Source: a virus. From it: a DNA stretch of 64,000 bases. Below, piece after piece: positions 5,504 to 52,900 of this stretch (positions are counted from its first letter, which is position 1; every line of letters starts with the position of its first letter). The stretch lies in the UHGV virus genome UHGV-1364187; one strand, 5' to 3'. Both the position numbers and the translations under genes were made by a program. Under the pieces are notes generated by a model. That model ran no database searches, was not told the origin of the DNA, and worked only from the letters and a program-made list of their open reading frames with translations.

Positions 5504-5533
5504 AATAAAATCACTCCTTATATATGTATTCAA

Positions 5534-5556: not shown

Positions 5557-5590
5557 AGTATTACTCCATTGTTGGAGTAATACTAATTTT

Positions 5591-6331: not shown

Positions 6332-6418
6332 ACCCCCTTTAATTACTTGTTACCCATAAAGTTTCAATTTTATATCAATAACTTTATATTAAAATATAAC
6401 ATTTGGAGGTATGCTTAA

Positions 6419-6757: not shown

Positions 6758-6760
6758 ACC

Positions 6761-8495: not shown

Positions 8496-8986
8496 CTCCG
8501 TCTTCACATAGAGTCGTGACTTCTATGCAGTTCTCTTATGAACTTCTATGAGTATTACTCATAAGGAGAGACTATATCTTCATCTTTTACTATTCTTATA
8601 TTATTTCAAATATAAGATACTACTAGCAGTCAGATGCCTTGCACTTCGGATATACTATATCCTACTCTACTCACTTCGTCTATATCTAATTTATTAGATA
8701 TACCTTATTTTTAACTAGATTACTAGTATATTAGCTTTCGATAGTCGTTGAACCTTCTCCTATATAATTTATATAAGAGCTTGGCTGCTGATTGGACATT
8801 GTTTGTTACTTGGCACGATACTTAGGCTCTCACCATATATCATCTTAATGATTATTTCTGTCTTTCGACTGCCATTCACGCTTACCTGTTACAGTTACGT
8901 TGTAGCTCATTAAGCATTAGCCCTTCCCAGACAAGTTCACAAGGTTTTTCTCCGTACATTTCTGTAGGGAGGACCCATCCACAAAT
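8496..8986 (-). mobile_element. Group I self-splicing intron (ORF-less, ~491 nt) inside the beta' gene
   Basis: A GC-richer island separates two ORFs that together give a colinear beta'. On the minus strand it contains GTTCAACGACTATCGAAAG (an R/P6-like core shared with the nrdD introns) and GAAGATATAGTCTC (11/12 match to the S element AAGATATAGTCC), followed by a P9-like hairpin (tatgagtaatactcata). The 5' exon ends in U and the intron ends in G. Confidence 0.65.
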
Positions 8987-11864: not shown

Positions 11865-13052
11865 CTATACTACATTTTTATGTGTTCTATATTTTACAAT
11901 ATCACTTATAGTACTAATATTATATCCAGTACTATATTTTATTTCAGTTAGTGTCATACCCTCTTGTTCATACATTCTTCTTATATCTCTTACAATATCA
12001 TCTGTTATACTTCTTCCAGGAGCATTGGATAAATCATATTGTTCATATATATCTCTATGTGCTCTACCGCTAGTAATATTCACAATAGTTTTTCTATTTA
12101 TATCAAGATGATGTGATATCATTGTTGGAGTATATCCATTGGAAAACAATATCATTATATTATGCACATCTTCATCTGTAATCTTAGTTGGAACATAAGC
12201 ATTAGATAAATCGTATTGATTTCTAATATCTAAATGTTTCTTTCCACCATATACAATATTAGTTACAGTTTTTCTATTTAAATTTAATTCATCTGCAATC
12301 TGATATGCTTGATACCCTTGAGAATATAATCTAAATATATCATGTAAAGTATCTTCTGGAAGTAATCTTGTAACTTGATCTAATTCTAATTCTTCATATA
12401 CATCTTTATGGCTAGAACCACATGATATATTTCTTACATTAACATATGAAACTCCAGTTTTTTCTGCAATTTCTTTAAGAGATAATGTTGTATCCTTAAT
12501 AAGATTACCAACTTCATAAGCTTTCTCTTTAGATATACATATAGCTTCTACTTCTGGTCTTAATTCTTCATATGAATGATGAACATTTTCTAATGGAGTA
12601 GCCCATTCAAGATTACATAACCAATTACACCATGTACAACCATTTATATGATTGACTTGATATTGTTCTGGATTTTCTATTGGAAGAAATGTCATCATTA
12701 CTAATCTATGAACAAAGTATATATGTTTCTTTCCATCAAGACATGATAATCCAACTCGTAGATATCCTTTATCTGTAGATTGTTGTTGCATGAATACATT
12801 ATTAAGTAATGAGAATATTCTTCCGTAATTACTTACCATATATCTTCCAGGAACAATTTCTTCTGAATTTATAAATACAAATATTTCATCTGGAGCCATA
12901 AGTGGGATATATGTATATTCTTGTTGATAATTTGAAAATTGTTCTGGTATATAATTTGGTGGTAGTTCTTTTCCAGTCTTAGAAATATATGCTGGAATTA
13001 TTAAATTTTTGATTTCTTGTCCTTCTTTATACTCTTTGTTTTTGTAATACAT
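11865..13052 (-). CDS. HNH homing endonuclease (NUMOD4-like N-terminus, HNH_3 core, four NUMOD/IENR-type helix-turn-helix repeats)
   Basis: HRLVMMTFLPIENPEQYQVNHINGCTWCNWLCNLEWATPLEN is a textbook phage HNH motif. The C-terminus has four ~35-aa repeats (..LNLNRKTVTNIVYGGKKHLDIRNQYDLSN..). Confidence 0.8.
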   Translation of the reverse strand: MYYKNKEYKEGQEIKNLIIPAYISKTGKELPPNYIPEQFSNYQQEYTYIPLMAPDEIFVFINSEEIVPGRYMVSNYGRIFSLLNNVFMQQQSTDKGYLRVGLSCLDGKKHIYFVHRLVMMTFLPIENPEQYQVNHINGCTWCNWLCNLEWATPLENVHHSYEELRPEVEAICISKEKAYEVGNLIKDTTLSLKEIAEKTGVSYVNVRNISCGSSHKDVYEELELDQVTRLLPEDTLHDIFRLYSQGYQAYQIADELNLNRKTVTNIVYGGKKHLDIRNQYDLSNAYVPTKITDEDVHNIMILFSNGYTPTMISHHLDINRKTIVNITSGRAHRDIYEQYDLSNAPGRSITDDIVRDIRRMYEQEGMTLTEIKYSTGYNISTISDIVKYRTHKNVV

Positions 13053-14910: not shown

Positions 14911-15191
14911 TTTTAAACAACTCCTTTAATATTATTATTGTATTATTTACACTATTATAATATATAAGTGAAATATTAGACTTTTACATAATATAATAAC
15001 ACACTAAGTCACATAGGGGATGAGCTTAGTGTGTTATTAATTTGGTAGATTGATGGTTAAGCAAGCAAAGTGGATTGTTTGCTAAAAAAATAGTGTTTTT
15101 TTGGAGTAAGACAATATTTGATATTACTTTGTATTTTGGGATTTGACTTAAGACAAATACTTGTCTCAAATATATGTTATTATATTTTAAA

Positions 15192-15228
15192 AGTTTAATA
15201 TCCACCATAGATTTTACTCTATGGTGGA
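15192..15228. terminator. Hairpin (tatccaccatag-attttact-ctatggtggata)
   Basis: Perfect 12-bp inverted repeat; first of four tandem hairpins in a 450-bp non-coding stretch. Confidence 0.4.
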
Positions 15229-15309
15229 TATACACACAAAAAAGGAAAGAAGAAAAAGAAAAAAAGTTTTAATATGGTTTACTAATATGTTATATTGTAT
15301 AAAAAGATA

Positions 15310-15348
15310 AAAACCTATACTATTATAGTATAGGTTTTTACAAATAAA
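15310..15348. terminator. Bidirectional terminator (aaaaacctatactat/atagtataggttttt)
   Basis: Stem flanked by an A-run and a T-run. Confidence 0.6.
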
Positions 15349-15414
15349 TTTAAAAGGAGATTGCTTAATACAAAAAGACTTATATCCCGATGGATTATAT
15401 ATATATGTTTATAA

Positions 15415-15455
15415 TAAAAAAATAAGATAAGCCATAATAGCTTATCTTATTTTTC
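15415..15455. terminator. Bidirectional terminator (aagataagc-cataata-gcttatctt)
   Basis: Stem flanked by an A7 run and a T5 run. Confidence 0.6.
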
Positions 15456-15584
15456 AAAAGAATTGTAGAGTTAAAAAAACAGCTAATTTAATATATAAAG
15501 GATTATTTATATGTTTATTAAAATTTAAACCTTAATAATCTCAGCTTGTATTATCATATTTTTATCTTCAGAATAATATATAAT

Positions 15585-15625
15585 TAAAAAATTAGACCAT
15601 ACTATAAAAAGTATGGTCTAATTTA
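15585..15625. terminator. Bidirectional terminator (ttagaccatact-ataaaa-agtatggtctaa)
   Basis: 12-bp stem flanked by A6 and T3. Confidence 0.55.
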
Positions 15626-15686
15626 ATATGTTTAGAACATTAATATAATAAAATAACGAAAAAATAAACTATAACCAGTAGAGTTC

Positions 15687-28827: not shown

Positions 28828-29946
28828 TTATTCGTCTTGTAAATCTTTATCTTCTTGTTGTTCTAAATATAGCTCTAAATATTCTTCATTTGTCATAATA
28901 TGTTCATCTACAACTTCGTCTATGAATTCCTTTTCATCATTACATACAATCTTTTGTTTATACTCAGGTAATAATAGATTGTCAATATCAAAATCTTCAC
29001 CAAAATTATCAGTAATATATTTAAATATAGATTCTTTGATACTTGAATATGAGTCTATATTTAATAATATCTCTTCTAATGTGTATGTTATATAACAATC
29101 AACTGTATTACCCAAAGGTCTATATAAATCACTTATAGTATTATCTGATATAGATTCTTGTACAGACATAACAGCTTTAGCTAATGAATTTAAATCCCAT
29201 TCATTTCCAGCCCATTCAACTTTTTTCTTTATCATTGGAATAAAGCTATTATCAAAACTATAAGTACATTTGTTAATATTACATATATCTATATACGGTA
29301 TATTCTTTAAATGTAATGTGACATTGATAAATTTTGGTAATCTTCTCATTGGAATAATTCCATCTACAGATGACCATAGATCTAATATATTATCAATATG
29401 AAATATACTAATATCATCATTAATCTTATTAAGATATTCATCTTCACATTCATAAACAAATCTATCTTTTATCATAATCTCATCGTTAATTAAATCTTTA
29501 AAGAATCTATAATCTAATTGATATAGACTATCAATTACTAGCTGTAGTATATTATTATTTGTATCTTGGATAGATTTTATCATATCTTTATAATCAAATA
29601 TAGATCCACCTATTATAATAGTATACTCATTATCTTTCAGAACGACTTCAGTTTTAAGTTCATTCTTATTAGACAAAAACTCTATTAATGAATCTTTTAT
29701 ATTTTCAAAAGCTTTTATTACAATAACGACATTACTATGAACAAGTAAATCTTCATTATTCTCTATTGTAGATATCATATTTGGTTTATTTGATTGATCA
29801 TTAAAAGAACAATAAGAACACAAAAGATATGTGTTCTTAATTGTTATTAATGATCTATTATCATGAATTTTACCAAGTTCTATTTCTTCACTTTTTTTAG
29901 TTGAAGATTTGATATTGCTTAGTACTTTCTTAATAGATCTCTTCAT
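28828..29946 (-). CDS. Hypothetical protein (372 aa)
   Basis: ORF. Confidence 0.55.
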   Translation of the reverse strand: MKRSIKKVLSNIKSSTKKSEEIELGKIHDNRSLITIKNTYLLCSYCSFNDQSNKPNMISTIENNEDLLVHSNVVIVIKAFENIKDSLIEFLSNKNELKTEVVLKDNEYTIIIGGSIFDYKDMIKSIQDTNNNILQLVIDSLYQLDYRFFKDLINDEIMIKDRFVYECEDEYLNKINDDISIFHIDNILDLWSSVDGIIPMRRLPKFINVTLHLKNIPYIDICNINKCTYSFDNSFIPMIKKKVEWAGNEWDLNSLAKAVMSVQESISDNTISDLYRPLGNTVDCYITYTLEEILLNIDSYSSIKESIFKYITDNFGEDFDIDNLLLPEYKQKIVCNDEKEFIDEVVDEHIMTNEEYLELYLEQQEDKDLQDE

Positions 29947-31124: not shown

Positions 31125-31811
31125 ATGAATAAAGTACAAGAGTTTATTTTCAACAATCTAGGAAGCGTTAGAATTATACCATCCGAGAATGGTAACCAAA
31201 TTGACACACTATTCTGTGCCAAAGATGTAGCATCTATTTTAGGGTACAGTAACACAAAAGATGCAATTTTAAGACATTGTAAGGGGGTCGTGAAACACGA
31301 CCTCCCTTCAAATGGAGGAAATCAATTAACAAACTTTATTAAACTTCCAGATGTATTCAATCTTATTTATGGATCTAAAATGCCTTTCGCTGAAGAGTTT
31401 AAAGATTGGATCTCTTATGAATTATTACCATCTATTTATATGAATGGTAGCTATACAGATCAAAATCATGATCCAAATTTCAAATTACCAAATACAATAT
31501 ACAATAGTGCAACAGATACATATGATCTAGCACAAAATGTAGATAGTGAATTTGAAATTCCGTGGAATGAAGAAACTTTAAACCAATTCCCAGAATGTAT
31601 GAGAAGATATCAACAAAATCCAAATATTCAATTAAATAAACATGATTCTATGATGTTATATGGTGTAAATCTTATGATGAATGAATATCAACAAAGACAT
31701 TTTGAGTATACAATAAATATAATTAACCAATTACAAAATCAAATCAATCAAATGCAACAAGATGTAAATAAAGTCAAACAATTAATCGTTCCAGTAACAA
31801 TTGAAAAATAA
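31125..31811 (+). CDS. Bro-N domain protein (antirepressor-like DNA-binding N-terminus)
   Basis: FNNLGSVRIIPSENGNQIDTLFCAKDVASILGY..NTKDAI matches the Bro-N (PF02498) signature. GAGGAGG RBS. Confidence 0.65.
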   Translation: MNKVQEFIFNNLGSVRIIPSENGNQIDTLFCAKDVASILGYSNTKDAILRHCKGVVKHDLPSNGGNQLTNFIKLPDVFNLIYGSKMPFAEEFKDWISYELLPSIYMNGSYTDQNHDPNFKLPNTIYNSATDTYDLAQNVDSEFEIPWNEETLNQFPECMRRYQQNPNIQLNKHDSMMLYGVNLMMNEYQQRHFEYTINIINQLQNQINQMQQDVNKVKQLIVPVTIEK

Positions 31812-31834
31812 TATAGTTCATAGGAGATGATTTT

Positions 31835-32257
31835 ATGTTAGTATTAGGAAAATTCGATTATGTATATTCAGATCAACAAAAAGATGCATTAAGAAACGCA
31901 ATTACTAATAATATTGAAGTTGGTGATATTAAAAATCCAGGCATTCCATTGAATCTTATGGAAACATATATTGAACTTAGGTCTTATGGGTATGATATTG
32001 AATTTTTAGAAGATCACGGTATTGGACTTTTAAGTATAACTTATCTGGATTGCCTTAAGGAATTAGCCAGAAATGATATTGATATTTATCAATTCATCTA
32101 TTGTGATAAATTTATACCATATGACAATAGACAAATACTTACTATTACTGATGGTCTATTAGAAGGATTTGATATTAGATACTTTGGAAATATTAATCTA
32201 TCTAATACAGAAATGAGAGAAATTATTGAAACTTTAAAGAAGGAGAGAATAGCATAA
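31835..32257 (+). CDS. Hypothetical protein (140 aa)
   Basis: ORF with GGAGATG RBS. Confidence 0.5.
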   Translation: MLVLGKFDYVYSDQQKDALRNAITNNIEVGDIKNPGIPLNLMETYIELRSYGYDIEFLEDHGIGLLSITYLDCLKELARNDIDIYQFIYCDKFIPYDNRQILTITDGLLEGFDIRYFGNINLSNTEMREIIETLKKERIA

Positions 32258-32586
32258 TGAATTATAGAACAATATATTATCAACCATCATTAGCAAATAA
32301 AGTCTTACATAAATCTATCAATCTACGTAAGATTAAATATTCAGGTTATAAAAGTAAACATGAAGCAATTAATCATGTTATATATAGAAATATACTGAGA
32401 TTAATAAGTAGTATTGGCAGTTATATAGAATTCGAAGTATCTACAAAATTTGTAGATGATTTTACTATAGAAATAGATTTAAACTACTATAAAGTACTTA
32501 ATAGAATGAGATTTTATGAACTTATTATAGCTTTATGCACTACCGATTATGTACAAGAAGATCAAATAAAAGAATTTGATATATAG
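32257..32586 (+). CDS. Hypothetical protein, paralog A of a tandem pair (109 aa)
   Basis: Shares an N-terminal YYQPSLANKVLH(K/R)S(I/V)(N/D)L block with the next gene. Confidence 0.5.
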   Translation: MNYRTIYYQPSLANKVLHKSINLRKIKYSGYKSKHEAINHVIYRNILRLISSIGSYIEFEVSTKFVDDFTIEIDLNYYKVLNRMRFYELIIALCTTDYVQEDQIKEFDI

Positions 32587-32598
32587 GGAGATAATTTT

Positions 32599-32961
32599 AT
32601 GGTATATAGAACAAGATATTATCAACCATCATTAGCAAATAAAGTCTTACATAGATCTGTTGATCTATGTAAGATTAATTATTATAGTAATACTAATAAG
32701 AAAATTGCACTTAAGTCTGGTATAAATAGTACTATAATGAGCATGTTATCTCAAATTACGAAAGATTATATGTATAATGTAGAATTTGAAATATCAACAG
32801 TATTGAATGGGGAAATATTGGATATTTATATAAAGTATTATAAAGTTATCAATAATATGGATTTATTAAATATTACTATAGATCTAAAATGTATCTCTCT
32901 AAAAGTATATATATCTGATAAAGATTTTAATAATATATTAAGAAAGCTTAAATTGATATAG
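32599..32961 (+). CDS. Hypothetical protein, paralog B of the tandem pair (120 aa)
   Basis: See paralog A; GGGAGAT RBS. Confidence 0.5.
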   Translation: MVYRTRYYQPSLANKVLHRSVDLCKINYYSNTNKKIALKSGINSTIMSMLSQITKDYMYNVEFEISTVLNGEILDIYIKYYKVINNMDLLNITIDLKCISLKVYISDKDFNNILRKLKLI

Positions 32962-33174
32962 ATATCTTTTGTGATATCTATATCTTTATTTTTTGTAAAA
33001 TTGTATTGGTATATAAAAATTATTATCTCAAATATCTCTATAATATTATTGTATAGATTATAAATATACATATATACTTTATTAAAGTATATATGTATTA
33101 TATCAATATTTTCATCTATTGTTTTGTTGTATATTATGGAGATTTTTATAGATCTCCCTGATTTCCTTCTGTAA

Positions 33175-33216
33175 TTTTTCAGGGTTCCTAGTCAACGCCT
33201 TTAAAAGCCCCCCTAC
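33175..33216. repeat. GC-rich direct repeat, copy 1 (ttttcaGGGTTCCTAGTCAACGCCTTTAAAAGCCCC)
   Basis: 35 of 36 nt identical to copy 2, which lies 347 bp downstream; GC-rich island in a >80% AT region. Confidence 0.6.
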
Positions 33217-33521
33217 CCCCCATTACTTTTTTGTTATATATTTTATAAATTATTATATCAAAATATCTATATTTATATATAAAAATTGAGAAATCTGTAT
33301 TACAATATTGATATCTATCTTATATTGATAAATATGTATTGTAATATAGATTGTTATGATATGTAAATAAAGTTATGTGTATATTGTATATCTATGTTTT
33401 TATATAGATGATTTTATTATAGAGATATAGATATCTCAGATTTGTATCTAAAGTATATCTATATCTCTATAATATTTATATATGTATATTATCTATGTAT
33501 TTATCATTGTTTTCCTCTTAT

Positions 33522-33560
33522 CTATCTTTTAAGGGTTCCTAGTCAACGCCTTTAAAAGCC
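33522..33560. repeat. GC-rich direct repeat, copy 2 (ttttaaGGGTTCCTAGTCAACGCCTTTAAAAGCCCC)
   Basis: See copy 1. Both copies are followed by a ttttgtta tract. Confidence 0.6.
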
Positions 33561-33668
33561 CCTTAGTATTTTGTTAGAACTTTAATAAAATTTAAATATG
33601 GACAGTATATGAATAGTATAAAATATACTAAATATAAGGAGGAATTGAATATGAATATTATTTAATCA

Positions 33669-34040
33669 ATGATTAATGAAAAATTAGGAGAAGTAAGAGT
33701 AATTAGAAGTGAAGATGGTAATGTAATGAATACATTATTTTGTGCATTAGATGTTGCAAGAGCATTAATGTATACTGAAAATAGTATAAGAAATGCAATT
33801 AATAGTCATTGTAGATATGTGTCAAAAATACACGTACATCATCCACAAAATCCAGATAAAACAATTAGTATCAATTTTATTCCATTATGTGATGTATTTT
33901 CATTAATATATGGATCATGTAAAGAAGAAGCTGAAGAATTTAGAAGATGGATTAATGAAGATGTACTACCACAGTTATATCAATTTGGTACGTATACAGT
34001 TAAAGATTATATTCCAGATTTACCATTAGGTAATCCATAA
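33669..34040 (+). CDS. Bro-N domain protein, second paralog (123 aa)
   Basis: LGEVRVIRSEDGNVMNTLFCALDVARALMY aligns with the 31125 gene's N-terminus; C-terminal FRRWINEDVLPQLYQFGTYT matches FKDWISYELLPSIYMNGSYT. Confidence 0.6.
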   Translation: MINEKLGEVRVIRSEDGNVMNTLFCALDVARALMYTENSIRNAINSHCRYVSKIHVHHPQNPDKTISINFIPLCDVFSLIYGSCKEEAEEFRRWINEDVLPQLYQFGTYTVKDYIPDLPLGNP

Positions 34041-34070
34041 TTTAATCAAAATAATATAGATGATATCTTT

Positions 34071-34343
34071 ATGAATTCATCAGAAACATGTATGAGTAAT
34101 GGTGAATCATTCAATAATTATTCTTTAGTAGTAGATATAGTAAAACGATTAGTTAATTATATTCAACCATTATATAGAAATCAACAACAGATTGCAAATT
34201 ACATACAACAAACAAATTTACAAAATCAAAAAGCATTAGAAGCAATAAACAATAGATTAGATAATATGGCTTCTAATTATTTAACTGAAGACGGAATGAT
34301 AATACCAGCAAGAATTATTCCAAAAGAACAAAGAATGAATTAA
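34071..34343 (+). CDS. Hypothetical protein (90 aa)
   Basis: ORF. Confidence 0.4.
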   Translation: MNSSETCMSNGESFNNYSLVVDIVKRLVNYIQPLYRNQQQIANYIQQTNLQNQKALEAINNRLDNMASNYLTEDGMIIPARIIPKEQRMN

Positions 34344-34479
34344 TATAAAAGAGTACATTGTACTCTTTTATTTTTTGTCTATATACGTTAGTATTGAACT
34401 TATATTTTTCTGTAAACAAAATCTTAATCAATTATATATTATATATATGAATATAATAATATTGAAAGGAGATTGTATT

Positions 34480-34776
34480 ATGAGATTAAAACGAGTAGGA
34501 ATGATAGAGAGAGATAAAAATGTATATCCTATTATAAATGAGGATGAATTAGAACCTGGAAGATATGCAATAAAGGTTGATGAATTTACACATGGGATAT
34601 CAGTATTAGAACGTGGAAACATCAATGATGGTACATCTTTGTATTATTGTAAACAAATTAAGACTTATAATGATAATAGCGTTTACCTTTATACTAATAA
34701 TATGTATGAAAGTACAAGAAAGAAATTTAGTGTTAATAAATTACTTAGAAATGCAGTAGTATGTAATATGATATGA
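34480..34776 (+). CDS. Hypothetical protein (~98 aa)
   Basis: Start chosen at MRLKRVGM with an AAAGGAG RBS; the upstream part of the tracked ORF lacks an RBS. Confidence 0.45.
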   Translation: MRLKRVGMIERDKNVYPIINEDELEPGRYAIKVDEFTHGISVLERGNINDGTSLYYCKQIKTYNDNSVYLYTNNMYESTRKKFSVNKLLRNAVVCNMI

Positions 34777-36072: not shown

Positions 36073-39000
36073 TTACATTTGGTCTAAATATTTCCATTTA
36101 ATTCCCGCTAAATCTTTTGCATGTCTGTCTAATTCTATCATAGCTTTATTAATAGCACCAACAATAATAGGTGCTCCTGTCATACGTGCTAATGTAGATG
36201 CAACACATAATATAGTATGGATTTTTTCATCTGGTCTATATGATGATGTTGGTTCTTTTCCTTTTTCTAATACAGTTCTACATACACCCTTTACAGCAGA
36301 ATAATCTACAATTTTATCACCAACTGCTAATTTGTCTTCATATTCTAGATATATCTCTATAAGAATTCCGCTTTCAATATTTTTAAGTTTTCCAACAACA
36401 GGCAATGCTTCTGTAGATTCTAATCCATAAATATAATCTATTCCATATTTCTTTTGAGCAGACTTTATTTTTTTAATAGGTTTTTCAATTTCAGTTACAA
36501 ACTTCTTAAGAGAATCTGATAGTTCATCTATTTCACATGTTCTATATACTTTGATATCACTTATGATACCATTAGCTTTAGCTTTAATTGTAAATCTTCC
36601 AAGATCAGATACAAGTTCGACATCTCCAGATAAAGATTTCATTAAAGCATTAACATCTTCTTCATCATATGCGTCTTGAAATACTAATAATGTATCTCCT
36701 TCTTGCACATAATCCCCTTTCTTTACAATATCTAATAATATAGCATTTTTATCCATAGATACATCTTTCTTAACGTCTATATATGACGTTAATGCATCTG
36801 ATAAATATTCTGAAACGATTGTACTATCTTCAAATCCTTCTTCTGTAGACATAATAGCTACTTTAGTTAATAATCCCATTGAGTATGTAAGATTATCATT
36901 AGCACCATAAGCATGGTCAAAACTAAATTTATCATAGGCTATAATATCATTAGCTTTGAATTTATCTCCAACTTTTAGTTCTGTACTAAGTTGTAATGTG
37001 ATATAGAATCCACCATCTGAATTTTTTCTAATATTGTTTCTTAAATCTATAAAATCATGAGTTCCATCAGAATAAGTTACAATCATATAGTCATCTGTAA
37101 TAGTCTCAACTGTACCATTCTTTTTAGCTTTAAATGCAAAGTTATTTGTTACCATATATGGTAAAGCTTGATCTGCACCGTTTGTAATTAAAGATGGGAA
37201 TGATATTTTTGTTGGTAATTGATGTTTTGATGTTTGGATAAAGTCCATTGCTGAACGCATAGCATCATTACGTGTTACACCATATGGAGTTAATGCTTCT
37301 TGGATAGAAAATGAACTAGTAATATTCATATCATCTCTATTTTTAGTGGTTTTAATATACCCCCTAATAGTATCAACATTCATATTTATTGTAGCCTGCC
37401 TTACAATACCAGAGTTACCAGCGAAGTTTGTAGCACATGCTAATATATTAATCATAGAAGGATCATATGAACGTTTATCAGCTTTATATGCTCTATCTGC
37501 ATTCATACCAGAATGACCTTTAGTTGATAATGCATTAATAGCTTCTAACTCTCCAATAGGAGTAGTATATGAGTAATCACCAGCAGTATTAGCCATTAAT
37601 ACTTCATCTATTACTGCAGATTGTTTCATTGATATAGTGGCATTCTTAAATCCTTTTTTAATTTTATTTTTATAATCATTATAAGCATATGCCAATTCCT
37701 TATAAGCATAAGCTGCCACTATTTCATTACTACGATATCTATATGCATCCATGTTAGTATGATTACTATACTGTGTTGATGCTAGTAAATCATTTGCATA
37801 TAACAATATGTCTGTAAATTCTGTAGGTAATCCGTAATGAATCAATGATTGCAATGTGATATAATCAATCATACAATCATAGAAGTTTTCTATACCATCA
37901 GATAATTTAGCTCTAGGACCATAATTATCTAAGATTTCTATCCACATAGATTTTGAATCTATATCTCCAATAGAATATATTTCTGTAGTGACATCTTTAA
38001 TTCCATTTAGTAATAGATTTGAACTGTTAGTACATTCAAAAACTATATATCCATCTGAAAATCTTATAAAATCTGCATTATCTGCTTTTTTGTCACTTTG
38101 ATCAAGTTTTTCTTTTATAGTATATTTAATATTAGCTTTTTTAAGCATTTCAGTTAAACCAATTTGATAGCATATGATGATAGCTAGTGGAATTTGAGTA
38201 TTAAGAATACTAGCTCTAGAATAAATATACTTCTTACCTTTAGTTGTATTATTGTATAATTCTCTAAGTTCATTATCGTCTCCAATTAATAAGTCCAATA
38301 TTTTATTAGGGACATCTGGAAATGAACTATAGATAACTTCTTTAGACGTTTTGTGATATGCAATAGGAATTTTTCCTTGTGGAACTTTCTCTATATTATA
38401 TTTAGTTCTAATCTCTTTTTGATTAAGATATACTATAACATCTTTAGTTTCTAACTTATTGTACTGAGAAGCTAAATATTCATATGTATATGGTACATCA
38501 TAAATATTATTAGCTAATGTACAATCTCCTATAGTAGATTTTATCTTATCTGTTTTGTTTATAGTTTTTATCAATCTGTCAGTAACAGAATCTGATTTTT
38601 GTCCATATCTTTTAATGAAGATTTTATTGTAGTTTGATACAATTTGAACAGTATCTGGGTCTGTTTTTGATATTGGTAACAATAATAATTGACCATTAAT
38701 AGTCTTATCATTACCTTTAATAATAAGAAACTTATTATCTTTAAACTTAGGTACGTCGAATTTAAATTGAAATCTTTTACCGAACGAATCTTCGCAAAAT
38801 ACAGTATATGTATCTTTATAATCTTCTGACGTTGATGAATCTTCAATTTTTATATCTCTTACTGCAACAGGATAAGATGATTTTGTAAGAAGTTCTGTAA
38901 TACAGTTAATTATATCTTTATTTACATCATAATCGTTTTCGATATTCATATATTTTAGATTAGACCATTCCTCTTCATTTACAGTGTCAATTCTTGTTGA

Positions 39001-40410
39001 TAAATTAGTTGATGTGAGTTCTTTATCAGTATCAGGACCAAGAATATCATCTAGTTTAATATTGTTTATTTCTTTTTGTCTTAGTTCTTTATTAAGATTT
39101 TCTAAACGGTCTAATCGTTGTTTGCTTATTTTACCACTATTATCTTGCTCAGCTGCCATTTTCAATATTAATTCTTTAAACTCTGGATCGTTCTCTAATT
39201 CTTCCATAGTAGCTTCTATATCTGAAGATTTTTCTGCAGCATTTTCAATTCTATTTAATAATTCTTTTTCATCTATAGAACCATCTTCTCCAGTAAGAGA
39301 ATTGATCTTGATTTTAGCCTTACCAGTTTCTAGTTTAGATAGAATAGCCATTACAATAGATTTTGTTGATGAATTATTATTAGCCATGCTATCTTGTTCT
39401 TCTGGTGGAATTGGCAAATTGTTTTCAATGATATTAATAAACTTATTAAATTTGATATAAGTTTCATTGTTGATATCATCTACTACTAATTTGAATTGAG
39501 TATTACCATTAGTAAATACAAATTCTTCACCAGATAGAAGTTCTTTAATCTTATCTGGATTTCTTCTTAATAATCTTGAGAATAATGATATAGGATTGAT
39601 ATTTTTCATATCTAATGTAGAATTCACACCTTCTGGAAGATTCCTATACCAACCATCAACAGGTATATATGACACTTTATTATATGAATCAAATCTTTCA
39701 TCTTTAATAAATCTATGAAGTAGTTCTAAGTATAGATATATACCTTTCATATTACTCATATAATTATTTTTAAAGAAATTTTCATTATAATAAAAGAAGT
39801 CTACATACATATTACGTCTTCTATATTTGTCCATATAAAGATATGCGTATTTGATAGATTTACATTCTTTCTTAATCTTATCATATACCAATACTACATC
39901 TTTTGGTGTTTTAAATCTTTCTCTATATAGTAATTGTTTTAAGATTTTATTGTATTTTGAAGATGATAGAATATTACTATTATCTTCTGCTTCTAGTAAA
40001 GAATTTAGTTTATCATTGTTAATGATTGTAATGCTAGATTCATCCATAATATAATCAATTCCAAATTCATTCATAGCTTCTAGTAAACCTTCTTTAGTTT
40101 GAGTATATAGATATCTATGTTTCTCTACATCTAATACCGTTTCGTTGATTATACTATCTTCTTCTAATATAATATCATCACTGTTTGATAAGAATGATTC
40201 TTGAGATATAATAAACGAAATATCTTTCTCAATATAATATGAGTCATATTGTTTATTACAATCTTTTGTATTGATAATCTTTATAGATTCATCAATATTT
40301 GGTGTTATTAAAAACATAATACTATCTTTGAGTTTATTTTTCGTATTGAACGGAAAATAAACAGGTTTATTGTATAATTTCATATTCTTTAAATCTTTAT
40401 ATAAAATCAT
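36073..40410 (-). CDS. Multisubunit RNA polymerase beta-like subunit (1445 aa, highly divergent)
   Basis: C-terminal KLAVGDKIVDYSAVKGVCRTVL matches beta GDKMAGRHGNKGVVSKI. HTILCVASTLARMTGAPI matches VLNPLGVPSRMNIGQI. The mid-region KRSYDPSMINILACATNFAGNSG matches [23 protein letters not shown]. GGAGG RBS. Confidence 0.8.
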   Translation of the reverse strand: MILYKDLKNMKLYNKPVYFPFNTKNKLKDSIMFLITPNIDESIKIINTKDCNKQYDSYYIEKDISFIISQESFLSNSDDIILEEDSIINETVLDVEKHRYLYTQTKEGLLEAMNEFGIDYIMDESSITIINNDKLNSLLEAEDNSNILSSSKYNKILKQLLYRERFKTPKDVVLVYDKIKKECKSIKYAYLYMDKYRRRNMYVDFFYYNENFFKNNYMSNMKGIYLYLELLHRFIKDERFDSYNKVSYIPVDGWYRNLPEGVNSTLDMKNINPISLFSRLLRRNPDKIKELLSGEEFVFTNGNTQFKLVVDDINNETYIKFNKFINIIENNLPIPPEEQDSMANNNSSTKSIVMAILSKLETGKAKIKINSLTGEDGSIDEKELLNRIENAAEKSSDIEATMEELENDPEFKELILKMAAEQDNSGKISKQRLDRLENLNKELRQKEINNIKLDDILGPDTDKELTSTNLSTRIDTVNEEEWSNLKYMNIENDYDVNKDIINCITELLTKSSYPVAVRDIKIEDSSTSEDYKDTYTVFCEDSFGKRFQFKFDVPKFKDNKFLIIKGNDKTINGQLLLLPISKTDPDTVQIVSNYNKIFIKRYGQKSDSVTDRLIKTINKTDKIKSTIGDCTLANNIYDVPYTYEYLASQYNKLETKDVIVYLNQKEIRTKYNIEKVPQGKIPIAYHKTSKEVIYSSFPDVPNKILDLLIGDDNELRELYNNTTKGKKYIYSRASILNTQIPLAIIICYQIGLTEMLKKANIKYTIKEKLDQSDKKADNADFIRFSDGYIVFECTNSSNLLLNGIKDVTTEIYSIGDIDSKSMWIEILDNYGPRAKLSDGIENFYDCMIDYITLQSLIHYGLPTEFTDILLYANDLLASTQYSNHTNMDAYRYRSNEIVAAYAYKELAYAYNDYKNKIKKGFKNATISMKQSAVIDEVLMANTAGDYSYTTPIGELEAINALSTKGHSGMNADRAYKADKRSYDPSMINILACATNFAGNSGIVRQATINMNVDTIRGYIKTTKNRDDMNITSSFSIQEALTPYGVTRNDAMRSAMDFIQTSKHQLPTKISFPSLITNGADQALPYMVTNNFAFKAKKNGTVETITDDYMIVTYSDGTHDFIDLRNNIRKNSDGGFYITLQLSTELKVGDKFKANDIIAYDKFSFDHAYGANDNLTYSMGLLTKVAIMSTEEGFEDSTIVSEYLSDALTSYIDVKKDVSMDKNAILLDIVKKGDYVQEGDTLLVFQDAYDEEDVNALMKSLSGDVELVSDLGRFTIKAKANGIISDIKVYRTCEIDELSDSLKKFVTEIEKPIKKIKSAQKKYGIDYIYGLESTEALPVVGKLKNIESGILIEIYLEYEDKLAVGDKIVDYSAVKGVCRTVLEKGKEPTSSYRPDEKIHTILCVASTLARMTGAPIIVGAINKAMIELDRHAKDLAGIKWKYLDQM

Positions 40411-43309: not shown

Positions 43310-43441
43310 TGCAATAAACATCTAAAATACATATAGAAATATACGTATACTCATTATATTTGATGAGTATACGTATATTTAATGTCTAATAAACACTATA
43401 ACATCATAGTAATTCTAGATATTTTAAGGAGGAATTTATTT

Positions 43442-44305
43442 ATGGAAGAATTTAAAAGTGTAATTAAAAGAAATGGTAAAATTGTAGATTACGATAGAAA
43501 TAAGATTAAAACTGTTGTTAGAAATAGTGGTCTTACAGATGAAGATAAATTAGAAGAATTTACATTGGAAGTTGAAAAACGACTACTAATAGAAAATGAA
43601 TCAGTTGATCATCAAGGTATATTTGATGTTGAACTAATTCAAGATATTATCATCCATCTGTTAGGACTATTAGGATATAAAAACGAACAAAATGAGTATA
43701 AGAGATATAAGAAAGAACGAGAAAAGATTAGACAGTCTAAATCTGATTTATTAAAAGTGGTTCATTCATTAGGTGTTGAAACTGATAGAGACAATGGGAA
43801 TGTTGGTAATAACTTCAGTGCCAAGTTATTACGTATTGCTAGCGAAACAAATAAATGTACGAATCTAGCATTAAATATTCCTAAGCATTTAGCGAAACCT
43901 CATGAAAATCATGATTACCATACTCATGATCTAGATAGTTATAATCTTACTACAAATTGTTTACATAATGACACTGGTGCTATATTAAAGAGAGGATTTA
44001 ATACTGGATATGGGTGGATTAAACCACCTAAAAGAATCGAATCAGCTGCCAACCTTACATGTATTATTATTCAATCACTTCAGAATGATTTTTATGGTGG
44101 GCAATCTTGTGTTGATATTGATAATGACCTTGGTGAATATGTAGAACCAACAAGACAAGAAATTATTGAAAGATTAGAACCTACAAGAAAATATGTACCA
44201 GAAGATGTATTCAATGATACAGTTGAAAGAATGTTAGATGAACAAATTCATCAAGCAGCACAGAATATTTGTTATAATCTTAATACTATGCATAGTAGAG
44301 CAGGT
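43442..44305 (+). CDS. nrdD: Anaerobic ribonucleoside-triphosphate reductase NrdD, exon 1 (ATP-cone and N-terminal region)
   Basis: AAGGAGG RBS. MEEFKSVIKRNGKIVDYDRNKIKTVV is an ATP-cone. HDLDSYNLTTNC...NLNTMHSRAG is colinear with class III RNR. The 3' exon boundary is approximate. Confidence 0.75.
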
Positions 44306-45463
44306 CAAGATGACTTAGCCGTGTTAGATAGAAATATCTAATATGATTATCGGGGAAATTCGGTAGAGGTCTAAGTAAGATTATCAATTAAAAAGAAATG
44401 ATGATATTTATGAATTATAATAAAACTGAAATTGAAAGATTATATTTTGAAGAAAATATGACATATGATCAAATATCTGAAATTGTAGGATGTTGTAAAT
44501 CTACTATAGGAAATATTATTAGATCAAATCCAAACTATAAAAAGAAATCACAAACACTATATAGTAATCCATTATTAGATGAAAATTATTTTGAAATAAT
44601 AGATACAGAAGCAAAAGCTTATATATTGGGACTTATGATAACAGACGGGAATGTTTGTTATTATGGTGATGGATATCGTATTAGATTACAATTAAAATAT
44701 GAAGATTCTTATATTTTAGAATTCTTTAAAAATCAGATTCACTGTTCCAATAAACTTATTGTTGATAAGCGAGATGGTTCTATTGCATTTAGTATAAAAT
44801 CAGAAAAGATGTTTTATGATTTATCTAAATATGGAGTAGTTCCTAATAAAACTTTAAATAATTATGTTCCACCAAATATACATCCAATGCTAATGCCTCA
44901 TTTAATAAGAGGAATATTTGATGGTGATGGTTGGATATCAAAATCGTTTGATAAAAATGGAAAGAAACATATAGCTATTGGTATTTGTGGAAATGAAAAT
45001 TTTCTTCAACAATTCAGGATATATTAGTAATAAATGCTCGAGTAAATATGAATATTATAAATTCTTATAGCTCAATTAATGAAGCTCCATTATACCAAAC
45101 AATGTGGTGTTCTATTGGAGATATTATTAGATTATATAGTTATTTATACATAGGTGCTAATATATATCTATTTAGAAAATATCATACTATAATTGATATA
45201 ATTTTATATGAAAATACCGAGAGGGCTTTAATCGAAAGTCTTTGTAACGCATAGGAGTTGAACGTTATGATAGTAAAAATACTCCCAAGAGTCTCCGACA
45301 CAATATACTATAGGTATATTTGAGGTGGAAATTGCTCACCACCAAACCTAACGTTAAACGAGGGTGAATATATATGCTAGGCTGGATTGGAAATGACCAA
45401 TCGATGAAAATGAGGGAAACCTCCAGAGGTCTAGATAAAAAGCTAGACGTTAATAACAGTCCG
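44306..45463 (+). mobile_element. Group I intron 1 in nrdD (~1158 nt) carrying a LAGLIDADG homing endonuclease ORF
   Basis: Separates ..MHSRAG from SQVPFSSLN, which are contiguous in NrdD homologs. The 3' portion has CCGAGAGGGCTTTAATCGAAAGTCT and GAGTCTCCGACAC core elements similar to intron 2, plus a terminal hairpin gtctag..ctagac and a final G. Confidence 0.65.
44398..45027 (+). CDS. LAGLIDADG homing endonuclease (two motifs) with an N-terminal helix-turn-helix, encoded inside nrdD intron 1
   Basis: AYILGLMITDGNV is motif 1 and HLIRGIFDGDGWIS is motif 2. Confidence 0.8.
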   Translation: MMIFMNYNKTEIERLYFEENMTYDQISEIVGCCKSTIGNIIRSNPNYKKKSQTLYSNPLLDENYFEIIDTEAKAYILGLMITDGNVCYYGDGYRIRLQLKYEDSYILEFFKNQIHCSNKLIVDKRDGSIAFSIKSEKMFYDLSKYGVVPNKTLNNYVPPNIHPMLMPHLIRGIFDGDGWISKSFDKNGKKHIAIGICGNENFLQQFRIY

Positions 45464-45766
45464 AGTCAAGTTCCATTTAGTAGTTTAAATATTGGACTTC
45501 CTAAAAATAAAAATGGTGCTAGAGTATGTATGGCATTATTAGAAGAATACGATAAAGGTATGGGAAAAGGAGAACAAATGATTTTTCCTAATATTATCTT
45601 TAGATGTAAAAAAGGTATTAACAAAAATCCTAATGATCCATATTATTATTTATATGATAAAGCTTGTGATGTAGCAAGTAGACATATGAATCCAACATTT
45701 ATGAATATTGATAGTAAAATTAATATGGAGTTATGGAAAAAAGGTATTACACCTGCAATCATGGGT
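45464..45766 (+). CDS. nrdD: NrdD, exon 2
   Basis: SQVPFSSLNIGLP...FPNIIF...PAIMG continues NrdD; the exon ends with ...ATG GGT immediately before the in-frame TAA. Confidence 0.65.
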
Positions 45767-46075
45767 TAACAGAAAATGTTACACGGTTTCTACAGCTCAT
45801 GTAAAACCTATCTAAACAGGGAAAGCTCATAAGAGTCAATCCTGTGCTAAATTCTAATATTATATAGAATATATAATTATTTATACATTGTATATAGTAC
45901 TAGATAAATGCCGAGAGACTATCGAAAGACTATTTTATATAGAATCAAGTAGAGTAGGATACAAGTGTATTCGAAAAGATAGGCTTAGATATTTATATTA
46001 TCTATGAAGATATAGTCCGACACCTATAGTGATATAGGAAAGATTATGGAAACGATAATCTTATAACAAGAAATG
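45767..46075 (+). mobile_element. Group I intron 2 in nrdD (ORF-less, ~309 nt)
   Basis: Contains an exact S element AAGATATAGTCC (gaAGATATAGTCCgacac), GCCGAGAGACTATCGAAAGACT (shared with intron 1 and the beta' intron) and an IGS-like ACCTAT complementary to the exon end ATGGGT. The intron ends in G, and the junction restores the conserved MG-CR motif (PAIMG|CRTYVG). Confidence 0.7.
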
Positions 46076-47035
46076 TGTAGAACATATGTAGGTACAAATA
46101 TCAATGGTCAAGAAGGACCATCTAGAAGAGGAAATAATGCACCTGTTACTATTAATTTACCTAGATTAGGTATTAAAGCTAAAGGTGATTTAAATAAATT
46201 CTGGAGTTTATTAGATGATATGCTTAATTTATGTAAAGAATCTTTATTACATAGACATAGTATATTATGTAAACTTAGAGTAAAAGATTTACCATTTGCT
46301 GCAGGAGAAGGTATTATGATGGGTTCAGAAAATCTTGGACCTGATGATACTATCGAACCAATTCTTAAGAACGGAACATATGGAATTGGATTTGTAGGTT
46401 TAGCTGAAACATTAGTAGCATTAATTGGTAAACATCATGGTGAATCTAAAGAAGCTGACGAATTAGGATATAAAATTGTAAGTCACATTAGAGAATATTG
46501 TGATAAAACTAAAGAAGAGACACATCTTAATTTCTCATGTTACTATTCACCTGCTGAAAGTACAGCTGGAACATTTGCAAATGCAGATAGAGAAAAATAT
46601 GGTATTATTAAAGGAGTTACTGACCATGATTTCTATACAAATTCTGTTCATATTCCAGTGTATTATAATATCTCTATTAAAGATAAGATTGATATTGAAT
46701 CTAAATATCATTATTTAGGAAATGGTGGTCATATCTTTTATGTGGAAGTTGATGGATATCCATCTAAAGAACAAATTAAGAAAATTGTAGATTATGCGTT
46801 TGATCAAAGTGATATTAGTTATATGGGAATTAATTTCCATATTAGATATTGTAAAAAATGTGGTAAACGTGTAACGAATAATGTTATGGTATGTGATTGT
46901 GGAAGTACAGCTTTCCAAGGTATTAGTCGTATTACTGGATATTTAGCCCTAGATGGAAGATGGGGTCAAGGAAAAGTTGCAGAAAGAAAAATGAGAGTAT
47001 CGCATACTACAGGTAAAAATGTATATACAGAATAA
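46076..47035 (+). CDS. nrdD: NrdD, exon 3 (C-terminal glycyl-radical domain and zinc ribbon)
   Basis: CRTYVG..INLPR; CKKCGK..CDCGS zinc ribbon; glycyl-radical motif SRITGYLAL. Confidence 0.75.
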   Translation, partial: CRTYVGTNINGQEGPSRRGNNAPVTINLPRLGIKAKGDLNKFWSLLDDMLNLCKESLLHRHSILCKLRVKDLPFAAGEGIMMGSENLGPDDTIEPILKNGTYGIGFVGLAETLVALIGKHHGESKEADELGYKIVSHIREYCDKTKEETHLNFSCYYSPAESTAGTFANADREKYGIIKGVTDHDFYTNSVHIPVYYNISIKDKIDIESKYHYLGNGGHIFYVEVDGYPSKEQIKKIVDYAFDQSDISYMGINFHIRYCKKCGKRVTNNVMVCDCGSTAFQGISRITGYLALDGRWGQGKVAERKMRVSHTTGKNVYTE

Positions 47036-49943: not shown

Positions 49944-52900
49944 ATGGCACAAAGAACAAGTTTAACAAAATATGCAAAGAATTTAGTAAAATCAACTAAA
50001 TATGCTACTGTTGATGTTGTAAAGGAATTAATGCCAAGTGCAACAGATTTTATGGAAACAAATAATGAATTATTTAAAGATATTACGTCTAATATACGTA
50101 ATAGACGTGTTATTTTTAAAAGAGTAAACGATAAAGTTACTCAATCAAAAATCTATGAAACTGTAGATGAAGCTAGAAAAAATATCATAGAAGATATAAA
50201 ATCTGGTAATTTATATAACAAAGATCCAATCAGAGAAAGACGTATTAATAAAAAATCTGGTATGGAGAGTATGTTAGGTGGATTTGATGATTTTAGTGAT
50301 TTTGAGTTTGAAATGGATGATTCATTCGAATTTGAAGATAGTGATAATGCCGAATTAGCTGATGCTTTTGATGATTCTAATAGAACAACATCAGAAATGA
50401 TCGCTAATACAATTGCAAAAACATCATCTAATCAGATCCAATCACAAAGAATATCAAGCCAGATGACAATGATGCAATTACAAGAAGGATTTACATTAGT
50501 AAATTCAAATCTTGGTGGAATAGGTAATGCTATTTCTGAATTAGGGAATACTATGTCATCTATTCAACAAACTAATGCTGAAAATGCAAAAACTTATTAC
50601 GAAAAATCTACTGACTTGCAAGCTAATATGGTATCATATCTTAAAGAGTTAGTAGATATGAAAAAATCTGAAATGGGATTAGATGCTAAGAAAGATACAT
50701 CTCGTGGACCTAAATCATATAATGACATAACTACATATGAAGGTATGCCTGATCTTAGAGCATATGGTAATATATTAGCTAGTAAATTAAATGATAATTT
50801 ATCAATGATTACAGGTCTTAATGAAATGGGTATCGAAGGTGGAAACATGTCAATGCAATTTGCTATGTCACCACTTGCATTTCTTCCTAAGATGGTTGTA
50901 AAGAAGGTTATGGGAGTAGCTGTTCAAAATTCAGCAAAAGCTTTAGATAATACATTATCAAATATATTTGGTACATTCATATCTGCTATGAATGATATGG
51001 CTGATAATTCTGGATATATGTCAATAAAAGGAATGATAGGACGATTCTTTGGTTTAAATGACACTGTAAAAGATGAACGTAGTATAAGAACAGACTATGA
51101 TAAAGGAAATAAATCATGGAATGGTAAAGCCGAAAAAGCATTAACTGAAGTAATTCCTACATTAATTTCTAAAATTTTAGCTGTAGTATCTGGAGCAAAT
51201 GAGATGACATATAACTACGATAATGGTAAATTTACTACAGTAAAACAATTAAGACAAGATGTAAAAAATAGAACTACTAATGAAATGAATAGTGCATTTT
51301 ATGATATAAGAAATAAAATGGACGAAATGATGAGATCTATTAATTTTGATTTTTCTGATGAAGACACTAAAGCATCATTTGAAAAAGATTATAATAGATT
51401 CTTTGAATATTTCTTTAAATCTAATAATAGATTTAATCCAAATAAGAAAAACTATGAAGATTATGATGGTCTTGGTATTGATAGAGGTAATTTTGAAATT
51501 ATATCTACATTGTTTGAAAGACTAGATCCATCATTAAAAATGTCTATGGATAGTAAAAAAATAAGAGCTAGAGGTGCTATTAATGATTATATTGATAAAT
51601 TAGGACAGAATAGTCCAGTATATACTATCCTTAATAATGATTCAAAATTAACAGATGTCGATAAATCTGTAGATGGAAAATCTGGAGGGTTATTAACAGC
51701 ATCTAAAGATTCATTAGGACATGACATATTCTGGTTTTTGGATAATATTCTTAAATCTATTAGAGATTTAAATCCAGATTCTGAATATAATGTAAATGGA
51801 AAGAAACGTAAAAAGAAAAGAACTAAAAATATAACTTCAACTCCTATTGTTCCATCTTCAGATAAAACATCTTCTGCTGGAAATAGGAAGAGATATGTTA
51901 GTCCAGATGCTCTTACTGCAGAATCTATATTATATAATAGAGCAGAGGGTACTACTATATCTGGTATTATTAATAATAGATTGGATATTGCTGACGAACA
52001 GAGAAAATTGGAGGAAGAAGAAAAAACATCTATTATTGATGATTTATTAGACTCACCATCTTTACCAGCGAAAGCTAAAGCTTTCATGAAAAGAATGAAA
52101 TCTACTAAAGAAGGTGCTAGAAATGGTATATCTGGACTTTTAGATACTGTAAATCTTAAGATATATCAAGCTATGTATGGTAATAAAAAATATAAAGGTA
52201 AGGATGTAAATGGTATTATAGGAGTAATGATGGAAAATATCGAAGAATCATTCACCAAGTTCAATACATTCTTAGATGAAAAGATCTTATCTCCATTGAA
52301 AGAAAAGTTAGATGAACAAGGTGGAATTAAAGGTATTCTTAAAAACACATTAGGAATAGATGTTGATTCTATTAAAGAAAGATTCTTTGGTAAAGATACT
52401 CTTTTTGGTAGAACTGTTCAATCTATTAAAGATAATTTTAAATCTGCTTATGAGTATTCTAAAGGAGCTGTAAAAAACACATACAATGAAATCTATGATA
52501 AATTAGGTGGAAATAGATACAATAGTAGATTCAATCGTGTAATGAACACTATTAAATATGGTAAGAAAAATACACAAGGTATGTTTATTGTAGATTCAGA
52601 TGGACAACTTAATATACTTAATCAAGTAAAAAAAGTTAAACCTTCAAATGTTACAGAAGATGGAAGATTAAACACTCAAGAAGAAGCTTCATCTGTTATG
52701 GAAGGACAAATGAGTTTCTTACCAAAAGACGAACAACAAGCTATAAAAGAAGCTGCAAATAATATGAATGTTCCAGTAGAAAATATTGCAGATGCAATCA
52801 ATAAAGGTAATATCGAAAAATATGCTAAAGGTGGAAATATTCATAAAACTAAAATTGTTATGGTTCATGATGGAGAAGAAATCATTACCAAAGAAGAAAA

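Follow-up and report, generated by a model that had tools for sequence, protein, structure and literature searches.

Genetic organization of the region

The analyzed DNA, referred to below as the window, comprises 64,000 nt of a 256,505-bp contig from a human-gut metagenome, with a genome GC content of 26%. The locus under study is a 707-bp gap between genes (positions 32962–33668), which contains no ORF of at least 40 aa with a plausible composition. No small ORF on either strand of the gap is conserved between copies or relatives, and a search for tRNA and tmRNA genes gave no result. The preliminary description had presented this region as the longest non-coding stretch of the window, with surroundings of more than 85% AT. 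The first statement is not clearly true, given that the segment 14911–15686 extends for 776 bp without an ORF of at least 90 aa; as to the second, the AT content amounts to 79% overall and 84% outside the boxes described below, although the presence of a GC-rich box as such was borne out.

The operon upstream of the gap (31125–32961) begins at an early promoter at position 31059 and is closed by an intrinsic terminator (Table 1) with the same hairpin and TTTATTTTTTG form as other terminators of the window. Its last two genes were correctly described as paralogous (42% identity, E = 2e-19); no domain match was obtained for either. Likewise, Bro-N domains were confirmed in the products of the genes starting at 31125 and 33669. 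The conserved neighbor 31835–32257 has no domain match, and its structural model (mean pLDDT 74.5) gave no PDB fold match. The suggestion that the neighboring genes encode iteron-binding or initiator proteins was not sustained, as no domain or PHROG match besides Bro-N was obtained. Downstream of the gap, the Bro-N gene and the adjacent 90-aa gene are followed by a terminator (34345–34371) and the next early promoter (34433). A homologue search with the downstream gene 34480–34776 returned only the gene itself.

On the plus strand, no early or late promoter of the type known from phage AR9 (see below) was found between 32995 and 33668, and the Bro-N gene has no recognizable promoter of either class. 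Its start lies 3 nt past the stop codon of a mini-ORF and lacks an RBS of its own, which, together with the strong AAGGAGG of the mini-ORF, suggests translational coupling.

Three relatives, designated L008, L094 and L009, were used for comparison; they carry polymerase homologues with 74%, 63% and 51% identity, respectively. The Bro-N and 90-aa genes are missing at this position in L008 and L094.

Table 1. Coordinates of the features of the gap and its surroundings (window numbering unless a relative is named).
Feature	Position	Strand	Remarks
Paralogous small genes 32257–32586 and 32599–32961	32257–32961	+	Accessory; absent from L008 and L094
Intrinsic terminator	32955–32995	+	Terminator scan; hairpin GATATAGATATC/GATATCTATATC followed by TTTATTTTTTG; closes early operon 31125–32961
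Palindrome, 16+1+16	33066–33098	.	A and T only; 100% complementary; 15-bp stem in fold
GC box copy 1 (c1)	33182–33211	-	Exact 30 nt, inside 46-nt repeat 33166–33211; about +14 to +43 of predicted P1 transcript
P1 late-promoter-like site	33224–33247	-	AACA 33235–33232, six-nt spacer, TA 33225–33224; predicted start 33224
Inverted pair ATTACAAT ... ATTGTAAT	33299–33345	.	Hairpin in fold; motif massively repeated in L008
Inverted repeat, 20 nt, perfect, 20-nt spacer	33415–33474	.	Arms 33415–33434 and 33455–33474; ATATCTAT/ATAGATAT units
P2 module	33514–33590	-	AACA 33575–33572, six-nt spacer, TA 33565–33564; predicted start 33564
GC box copy 2 (c2)	33533–33562	-	Exact 30 nt; +3 to +32 of predicted P2 transcript
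RBS and mini-ORF	33636–33671	+	AAGGAGG; MNII, 4 codons, ATG 33651 to TAA 33665; Bro-N start 33669
Bro-N gene 33669–34040 and 90-aa gene 34071–34343	33669–34343	+	Accessory
L008-family inverted repeats and centre	L008 9186–9765; L099 6470–6910; L100 4670–5260		Strains/samples differ in orientation

RNA polymerase genes and promoter classes

Several split multisubunit RNA polymerase (beta-like) genes were identified in the approximately 74 kb of the 256-kb genome that were examined, and their closest isolated relatives are those of the jumbo phages AR9, PBS1, LPJP1 and S6. The 1445-aa product of 36073–40410 is homologous to the beta subunit of the AR9 virion polymerase. No DNA similarity to isolated phages was detected for the gap or for the 20 kb around it, and a scan of IMG/VR with the polymerase as query identified no relatives.

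A 374-bp non-coding stretch (8508–8881) of unusually high GC content (33%) lies upstream of a polymerase beta-like fragment (8882–10147), and a gene for a 395-aa HNH endonuclease (11865–13052) is located between two polymerase subunit genes; together, these features suggest the presence of mobile elements within the cluster of polymerase genes. The gene for the anaerobic ribonucleotide reductase NrdD (span 43382–47035) is also split: its halves (43382–44341 and 46073–47035) are separated by about 1.7 kb with two ORFs (44398–45027 and 45374–45769) and GC-richer non-coding stretches. The arrangement is reminiscent of an insertion by an intron or a homing endonuclease, yet none of the Rfam models for group I and group II introns reached threshold there; NrdD is uninterrupted in the relative L011. 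Another feature of the window is a single 3355-aa ORF (49944–60011), whose L009 homologue (3498 aa) contains Peptidase_C39_2 and NLPC_P60 domains.

AR9, whose DNA contains uracil, encodes a non-virion RNA polymerase with split beta/beta' subunits and a promoter-specificity subunit (gp226). The late promoters recognized by this polymerase have the form 5'-AACA-N6-T-A/G(+1), in which AACA spans -11 to -8, six nucleotides intervene, and the T and the A or G occupy -1 and +1, respectively (PMC5312081, PMC5449584). Using the early and late consensus sequences drawn from these studies (PMC5312081, PMC5449584), 11 early-type sites (TTCAATTATATATTAT-N6-G) were found before operons of the window, and late-type AACA-N6-TA was found 15–40 nt 5' of the start codon in at least 12 window genes. 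The two phages share the late core motif and its spacing, the early promoter consensus, split multisubunit polymerase genes and the placement of late promoters (predicted ones in the present genome) 15–60 nt 5' of late genes. Their protein identity is about 30%, and they have no DNA similarity. Thirteen gene-proximal AACA-N6-TA sites served as the training set for an extended late-promoter matrix.

The duplicated GC-rich box and two predicted minus-strand late promoters

The most conspicuous feature of the gap is a GC-rich box, whose exact 30-nt form (GGGTTCCTAGTCAACGCCTTTAAAAGCCCC) occurs exactly twice in the window, at positions 33182 and 33533 of the plus strand (no copies are expected, as judged from 100 shuffles). 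No further copy was found in the window when up to 3 mismatches were allowed, and the search for partial copies or complements yielded only one 9-mer, within an unrelated terminator. The duplication reported in the preliminary description was thereby confirmed, including the match at 35 of 36 positions in a 36-nt version and the sequence ttttgtta 3' of both copies, although the start-to-start distance is 351 bp rather than 347 bp. The site of copy 1 holds two of the only three C6 runs in the 64 kb and is the joint most GC-rich 30-mer of the window; on the RNA strand, a G6-TA-G6 tract (33221–33208) starts before the box and extends into it by four nt. The exact box had no match in IMG/VR, GTDB genomes or JGI metagenomes, and this absence from public collections speaks against derivation from a sequenced host, be it as an att site, as part of a tRNA or as a mimic of a CRISPR repeat.

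Inspection of the sequence following the boxes revealed that ttttgtta is the reverse complement of TAACAAAA, that is, of the AR9-type late promoter AACA-N6-TA. The minus-strand readings of the two sites are tatatAACAaaaaagTAatgggggg and ttctAACAaaatacTAaggggc. Each box therefore corresponds to the first 30–45 nt or so of a predicted minus-strand transcript. The site adjacent to copy 1 (P1) is preceded by tataaaatatat, and the module around the second site (P2) has tattaaagttct upstream, with a leader extending through AGATAGATAAGAG. The bare AACA-N6-TA motif occurs 104 times in the window, which is about the chance expectation; the case for P1 and P2 therefore rests on their rank with the extended matrix, their position and their conservation. 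Among the 128,000 positions scored, they rank 4th and 21st, respectively, being first and approximately eighth among the sites outside the training set. Most other late promoters are without such a box.

No ORF was found downstream of either window cassette, and a terminator scan revealed no canonical minus-strand terminator after either of them. Taken together, the boxes probably do not form the core of an origin of replication, but are parts of two orphan minus-strand late promoter-leader cassettes. The earlier notion of a functional element is thus upheld insofar as the box looks functional and is recurrent; it does not appear to be an origin-specific site, but a promoter-leader module read on the opposite strand.

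According to this model, the gap would separate two early operons of a jumbo phage of the AR9 type and act as a control region, opening with the terminator of the upstream operon. Its minus strand would carry late promoters of the AR9 non-virion-polymerase type, each followed by a G-rich initial transcribed leader of about 30–50 nt. The two orphan cassettes would fire late and leftward to give non-coding transcripts, which would cross the AT-rich palindromes and approach the preceding early operon from its 3' end, being antisense to it. Such converging transcripts fit the late antisense transcription of AR9, in which late promoters also drive antisense transcription.

A third copy of the cassette

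The preliminary description had proposed to check whether the box recurs elsewhere in the genome, and this proved to be the case. Contig L107 was found to match the window perfectly from position 33515 rightward and to contain unrelated DNA to the left; two small proteins of L107 are encoded on the same 256.5-kb contig as the window, which led to a locus (L113) about 100 kb away. This locus contains a third exact copy of the box (L113 4813–4842), in the position of a late promoter and 5' UTR before genes, and seven further contigs are colinear with it.

The third copy lies in a 94-bp intergenic gap in the order stop codon, tattaaacttctAACAaaaaacTAa, box, ttaaaagatagataagagaGGAGAgattaatatATG, 40-aa gene, with tattaaacttctAACAaaaaacTA before the box and a ribosome-binding site and the ATG of the 40-aa gene after it. 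The operon consists of the 40-aa gene, a 70-aa gene and a tubulin-like gene. The cassette is situated 62 nt before a gene start equipped with a ribosome-binding site, so that here it is predicted to be an ordinary late promoter with a 62-nt 5' UTR. The orientation, in which the G-rich strand corresponds to the RNA, agrees with that predicted from the window alone. The c2 module of the window is nearly identical to the L113 cassette from about -25 to +51, and the two diverge at the ribosome-binding site. At this second locus, the same cassette is predicted to drive a genuine late operon. The number of cassettes found so far is three, at two loci.

With respect to the products of the L113 genes (5357–6544), the 40-aa peptide is acidic, the 70-aa protein is a DivIC-like coiled-coil/membrane protein, and the third product resembles tubulin/FtsZ, its Pfam Tubulin match (E = 9e-5) being below the family threshold.

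Conservation in related phages

The three relatives each contain an ORF-free gap of 700–1350 bp in the corresponding position, downstream of the homologue of 31835–32257; the accessory genes around it differ. About 160 nt around c2 can be aligned with L008 and with L094, and these alignments retain the promoter, an upstream TTGTAATAATTTATTAAA and a downstream AGATAGGAG... stretch. In L009, P1 and P2 each have an orthologue of their own, with order and orientation preserved: P1 corresponds to unit C of L009 (ATATATAACAAAAAAATAAT), and P2 is orthologous to the promoters of L008, L094 and unit B of L009. All box copies examined (c1, c2, L113, both arms of L008, and L094) have a late promoter 2–13 nt upstream, consensus or near-consensus in sequence (TACA in one L008 arm). 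The window-trained matrix placed the box-adjacent sites 1st to 6th in the loci of the relatives. Both minus-strand sites of the window, as well as those of L113, L008, L094 and L009, fit the core and spacing of AR9 late promoters. What is conserved is the promoter, with its position and orientation, whereas the sequence of the box is lineage-specific.

In L009, three units were identified on the same strand, each comprising a late promoter and, after it, a stretch with strong folding. Unlike the window cassettes, units A and B are closed by a hairpin with a U run; the hairpin at the end of unit C has a short U run only.

Two more general features were considered and rejected. A large gap after the polymerase gene is not a clade-wide trait (11/53 downstream vs 10/47 upstream), and the syntenic place in AR9 has no such gap. 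A purine-rich or R-loop-prone leader is found in the window, L008 and L094, but not in L009.

Several other differences between the relatives were observed. L094 contains three direct repeats of about 144 bp (6520–6960), each with a GTGCAC-GTAA-GTGCAC hairpin, plus one promoter-box cassette. In L012 (43% polymerase identity), a 203-kb contig ends 277 bp past the polymerase gene in a tandem array (L012 14320–14504 and the end of L013) of units of about 51–60 bp with a start-to-start spacing of 51 bp, each with AACA-N6-TA on the polymerase strand. A gene for the thymidylate synthase ThyX (Thy1) is present in L009 (18330–19547) and L094 (3664–4863), and the corresponding position of the window holds a 372-aa gene (28828–29946) with no Pfam match and 24% identity to the L009 gene. 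This difference may have a bearing on thymine versus uracil DNA in these phages.

Palindromes, short repeats and the origin hypothesis

The preliminary description had considered the gap, with its palindromes, iteron-like repeats and duplicated box, a candidate origin of replication. The perfect palindrome was confirmed (arms 33066–33081 and 33083–33098). The second one, agatatagatatct, proved to consist of 6-nt arms with a 2-nt spacer, and thus not to be perfect, and to belong to the larger 20-nt inverted repeat, which was not listed in the preliminary description and is also seen in the fold. The richness of the gap in hairpins exceeds chance (fold z-scores of approximately -6), and in the corresponding gap of L008 the motif ATTGTAA occurs 10 times against an expectation of 0.11.

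Nine copies of TATCTAT/ATAGATA were found within 32958–33525, in agreement with the at least nine reported. TATCTAT is enriched (8 observed vs 1.7 in dinucleotide shuffles, with 0 of 1000 shuffles reaching 8); however, 84% of the shuffles hold some 7-mer that is at least as frequent. Furthermore, four of the nine copies are merely arms of hairpins, two in the terminator 32955–32995 and two in the repeat 33415–33474. For these two reasons, the evidence for iterons is weak. The spacings are irregular (48, 77, 67, 34 and 29 bp), and no regular or phased arrangement beyond chance was detected.

If the gap were an origin, its AT-rich DNA would be the site of unwinding, an initiator would bind the short repeats, and the late promoters might provide activation or priming. 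The 84% AT content outside the boxes and the many perfect hairpins are compatible with this, as are the retention of the gap at this position in four lineages, the lineage-specific short repeats (ATATCTAT in the window, ATTGTAAT in L008) and the longer arrays of relatives (3 x 144 bp in L094, tandem units in L012). The G6-TA-G6 tract, at +4 to +17 of the predicted P1 transcript, could be counted in its favor as well. Promoter-dependent phage origins are known, namely the primary origin of T7 and the R-loop origins oriF and oriG of T4, in which a phage-polymerase promoter stands beside an AT-rich, easily unwound stretch, as it does here. Unlike these, the cassette described here doubles as an ordinary gene promoter. 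Indeed, since at L113 it is a plain promoter with a 5' UTR, the box is not specific to an origin, and the hypothesis loses its main argument.

Close to the gap, at about 31 kb, the genes undergo their main switch in orientation and the cumulative GC skew reaches its minimum, which could be taken in favor of an origin; however, the minimum is 2 kb off and is explained by the flip in gene orientation. Other observations also speak against the hypothesis. The repeats are irregular, in part hairpin arms and matched in frequency by the top 7-mer of most shuffles; no gene for an initiator, helicase loader or primase is adjacent, the product of 31835–32257 giving no match to a DNA-binding fold. A similar ORF-free gap rich in promoters and hairpins exists at 14911–15686, and wider relatives have no special gap at this place. 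A search of the literature on jumbo-phage origins found nothing relevant. With no regular iterons, recognizable initiator gene or independent skew signal, nothing specific supports an origin, and we consider it unlikely that the gap serves as one.

RNA structure and the possibility of sequence debris

The preliminary description had alternatively proposed a structured RNA locus. Of this proposal, the RNA itself is retained, being probably made according to the promoter prediction, whereas a conserved structure is not: RNAalifold analysis of the four window and L008 copies gave 0 consensus pairs, and no Rfam match was obtained in the window or its relatives, even at E ≤10. No conserved hairpin was found in the box or the leader, the leader folds being no better than those of shuffled sequences.

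These results bear on the view that the gap contains genes for structured non-coding RNAs that are functional in themselves, for example in regulation or anti-defence. The units of L009 could be taken as such genes, combining a promoter with a strongly folding stretch (z-scores of -6 for unit A and -10 for unit C), with canonical termination of A and B; ORF-less promoter-to-terminator units are also present at 14911–15686. On the other hand, the window units lack terminators, and no sequence homologues were identified when more than 80 related loci were searched by nhmmer, using the element and the units of L009 as queries. Combined with the lack of Rfam matches and consensus pairs, this makes RNA genes of this kind distinctly unlikely.

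The segment 14911–15686 itself contains, on the minus strand, consensus early promoters at 14966 and 15582, together with late-promoter-like sites at 15291 and 15515, an AACA-N6-TG near 15178 and several terminators composed of a hairpin and a T run. Its short promoter-to-terminator units without ORFs are candidate sources of small non-coding transcripts.

Finally, the gap could be functionless debris, i.e. orphan cassette copies and AT-rich filler left behind after recombinational loss of minus-strand accessory genes. The identity of the c2 leader with the gene-proximal copy up to the ribosome-binding site, beyond which they diverge, would be expected of such a remnant, and the variable flanking accessory genes and the AT-rich interior, which cannot be aligned between relatives, point the same way. 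Against this, both promoters are kept in order and orientation down to 51% polymerase identity, where the surrounding non-coding DNA is beyond alignment, and the size of the gap is similar (about 700–1350 bp) in four lineages. Decay without function is thus very unlikely.

Signs of recombination at the cassettes

The window and its relatives contain several signs of rearrangement at the promoter-leader cassettes. The three copies of the window genome share identical tracts of 30–51 nt despite their differing flanks, and contigs from three lineages end at or in the box (L007, L010, L099, L101 and L102). The variable gene content of the flanks among relatives is a further sign. L107 joins the window and L113 loci inside the identical tract; at a coverage of just 2.7x, this contig could be a chimeric product of the assembly.

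In the L008 family, a 280-bp centre is flanked by inverted repeats of 135–180 bp, which are made up of the box and a downstream arm of about 130 nt. The orientation of the centre in L008 is opposite to that in L099–L102, and its ends carry outward-facing promoters, one consensus (AACA) and the other near-consensus (TACA). In an invertible promoter switch (inverton), a promoter is flanked by inverted repeats, occurs in both orientations and is accompanied by a recombinase; the repeats and both orientations are seen in this family, but no recombinase was found.

The box copies of the window are direct repeats. In L106, positions 1–63 correspond to window 33237–33299 reversed and joined at 33617, forming a 63-nt inversion junction located at a 22-nt imperfect inverted repeat (33226–33247/33617–33638). 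Three further contigs (L003, L005 and L006) stop at window positions 33613–33615. The L106 junction and these contig ends are a weak hint of an inversion of the P2-containing segment within the population, or else result from chimeric reads.

Overall, the cassettes look recombination-prone. The identical tracts may have arisen by gene conversion among the copies. In T4-type phages, PeSLs are promoter-early/stem-loop cassettes consisting of a sigma-70-type early promoter and a terminator, and they act as homologous-recombination substrates that shuffle, delete and insert neighboring genes (PMC2839356, PMC4122927). By analogy, the cassettes described here could be recombination hot spots at which neighboring DNA is gained, lost or inverted.

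A further reading, which is conceivable though doubtful, is that of a self-homogenizing module, in which the lineage-specific leader of about 30 nt would mark late transcripts for a phage factor and the sites would flip or swap DNA. If this were true, the gap would be a recombinational switch of the direction of late transcription, either antisense into the early operon or sense downstream; the idea of both directions derives from the two orientations of the L008 family. In a variant of this reading, late transcripts would act as primers or activators of replication within the AT-rich palindromic DNA.

Relation to known cassettes and significance

The promoter-leader cassettes resemble PeSLs in being short regulatory cassettes, repeated in the genome and placed beside small accessory genes in variable regions: three copies were found at two loci, with variable flanking accessory genes. 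They differ in composition, having a late phage-polymerase promoter and a transcribed leader without a stem-loop in place of the sigma-70-like early promoter and terminator stem-loop, and in that their recombination is deduced from contigs. The resemblance is therefore one of function, not of membership.

In lambdoid phages, the nut, put and qut elements occupy the first transcribed part of two or more transcription units; those of one phage resemble each other, and those of related phages differ. They are RNA hairpins or DNA sites of a defined kind, and their partner proteins are known. The box shares their placement and lineage-specificity, but differs in that no conserved hairpin was found. 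With regard to AR9, no description of a repeated G-rich leader box on a subset of promoters, as seen here, was found in PMC5312081 or PMC5449584. The kinds of element behind the feature are nevertheless known ones, namely the AR9-type late promoter and the repeated regulatory cassette, and the feature is real and non-random.

A region that resembled an origin is thereby recast as a set of testable predictions: two minus-strand late transcription starts, a leader common to three or more transcription units, and cassettes that recombine. Should inversion or exchange indeed be mediated by them, the cassettes would be the equivalent, in jumbo phages, of the T4-type cassettes and would provide a handle on the movement of accessory genes such as the Bro-N genes; if not, they would be ordinary regulatory DNA. 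More broadly, the AR9 transcription logic, with two phage multisubunit polymerases and two promoter classes, extends to uncultured jumbo phages of the human gut, whose operons thus become readable from their sequence.
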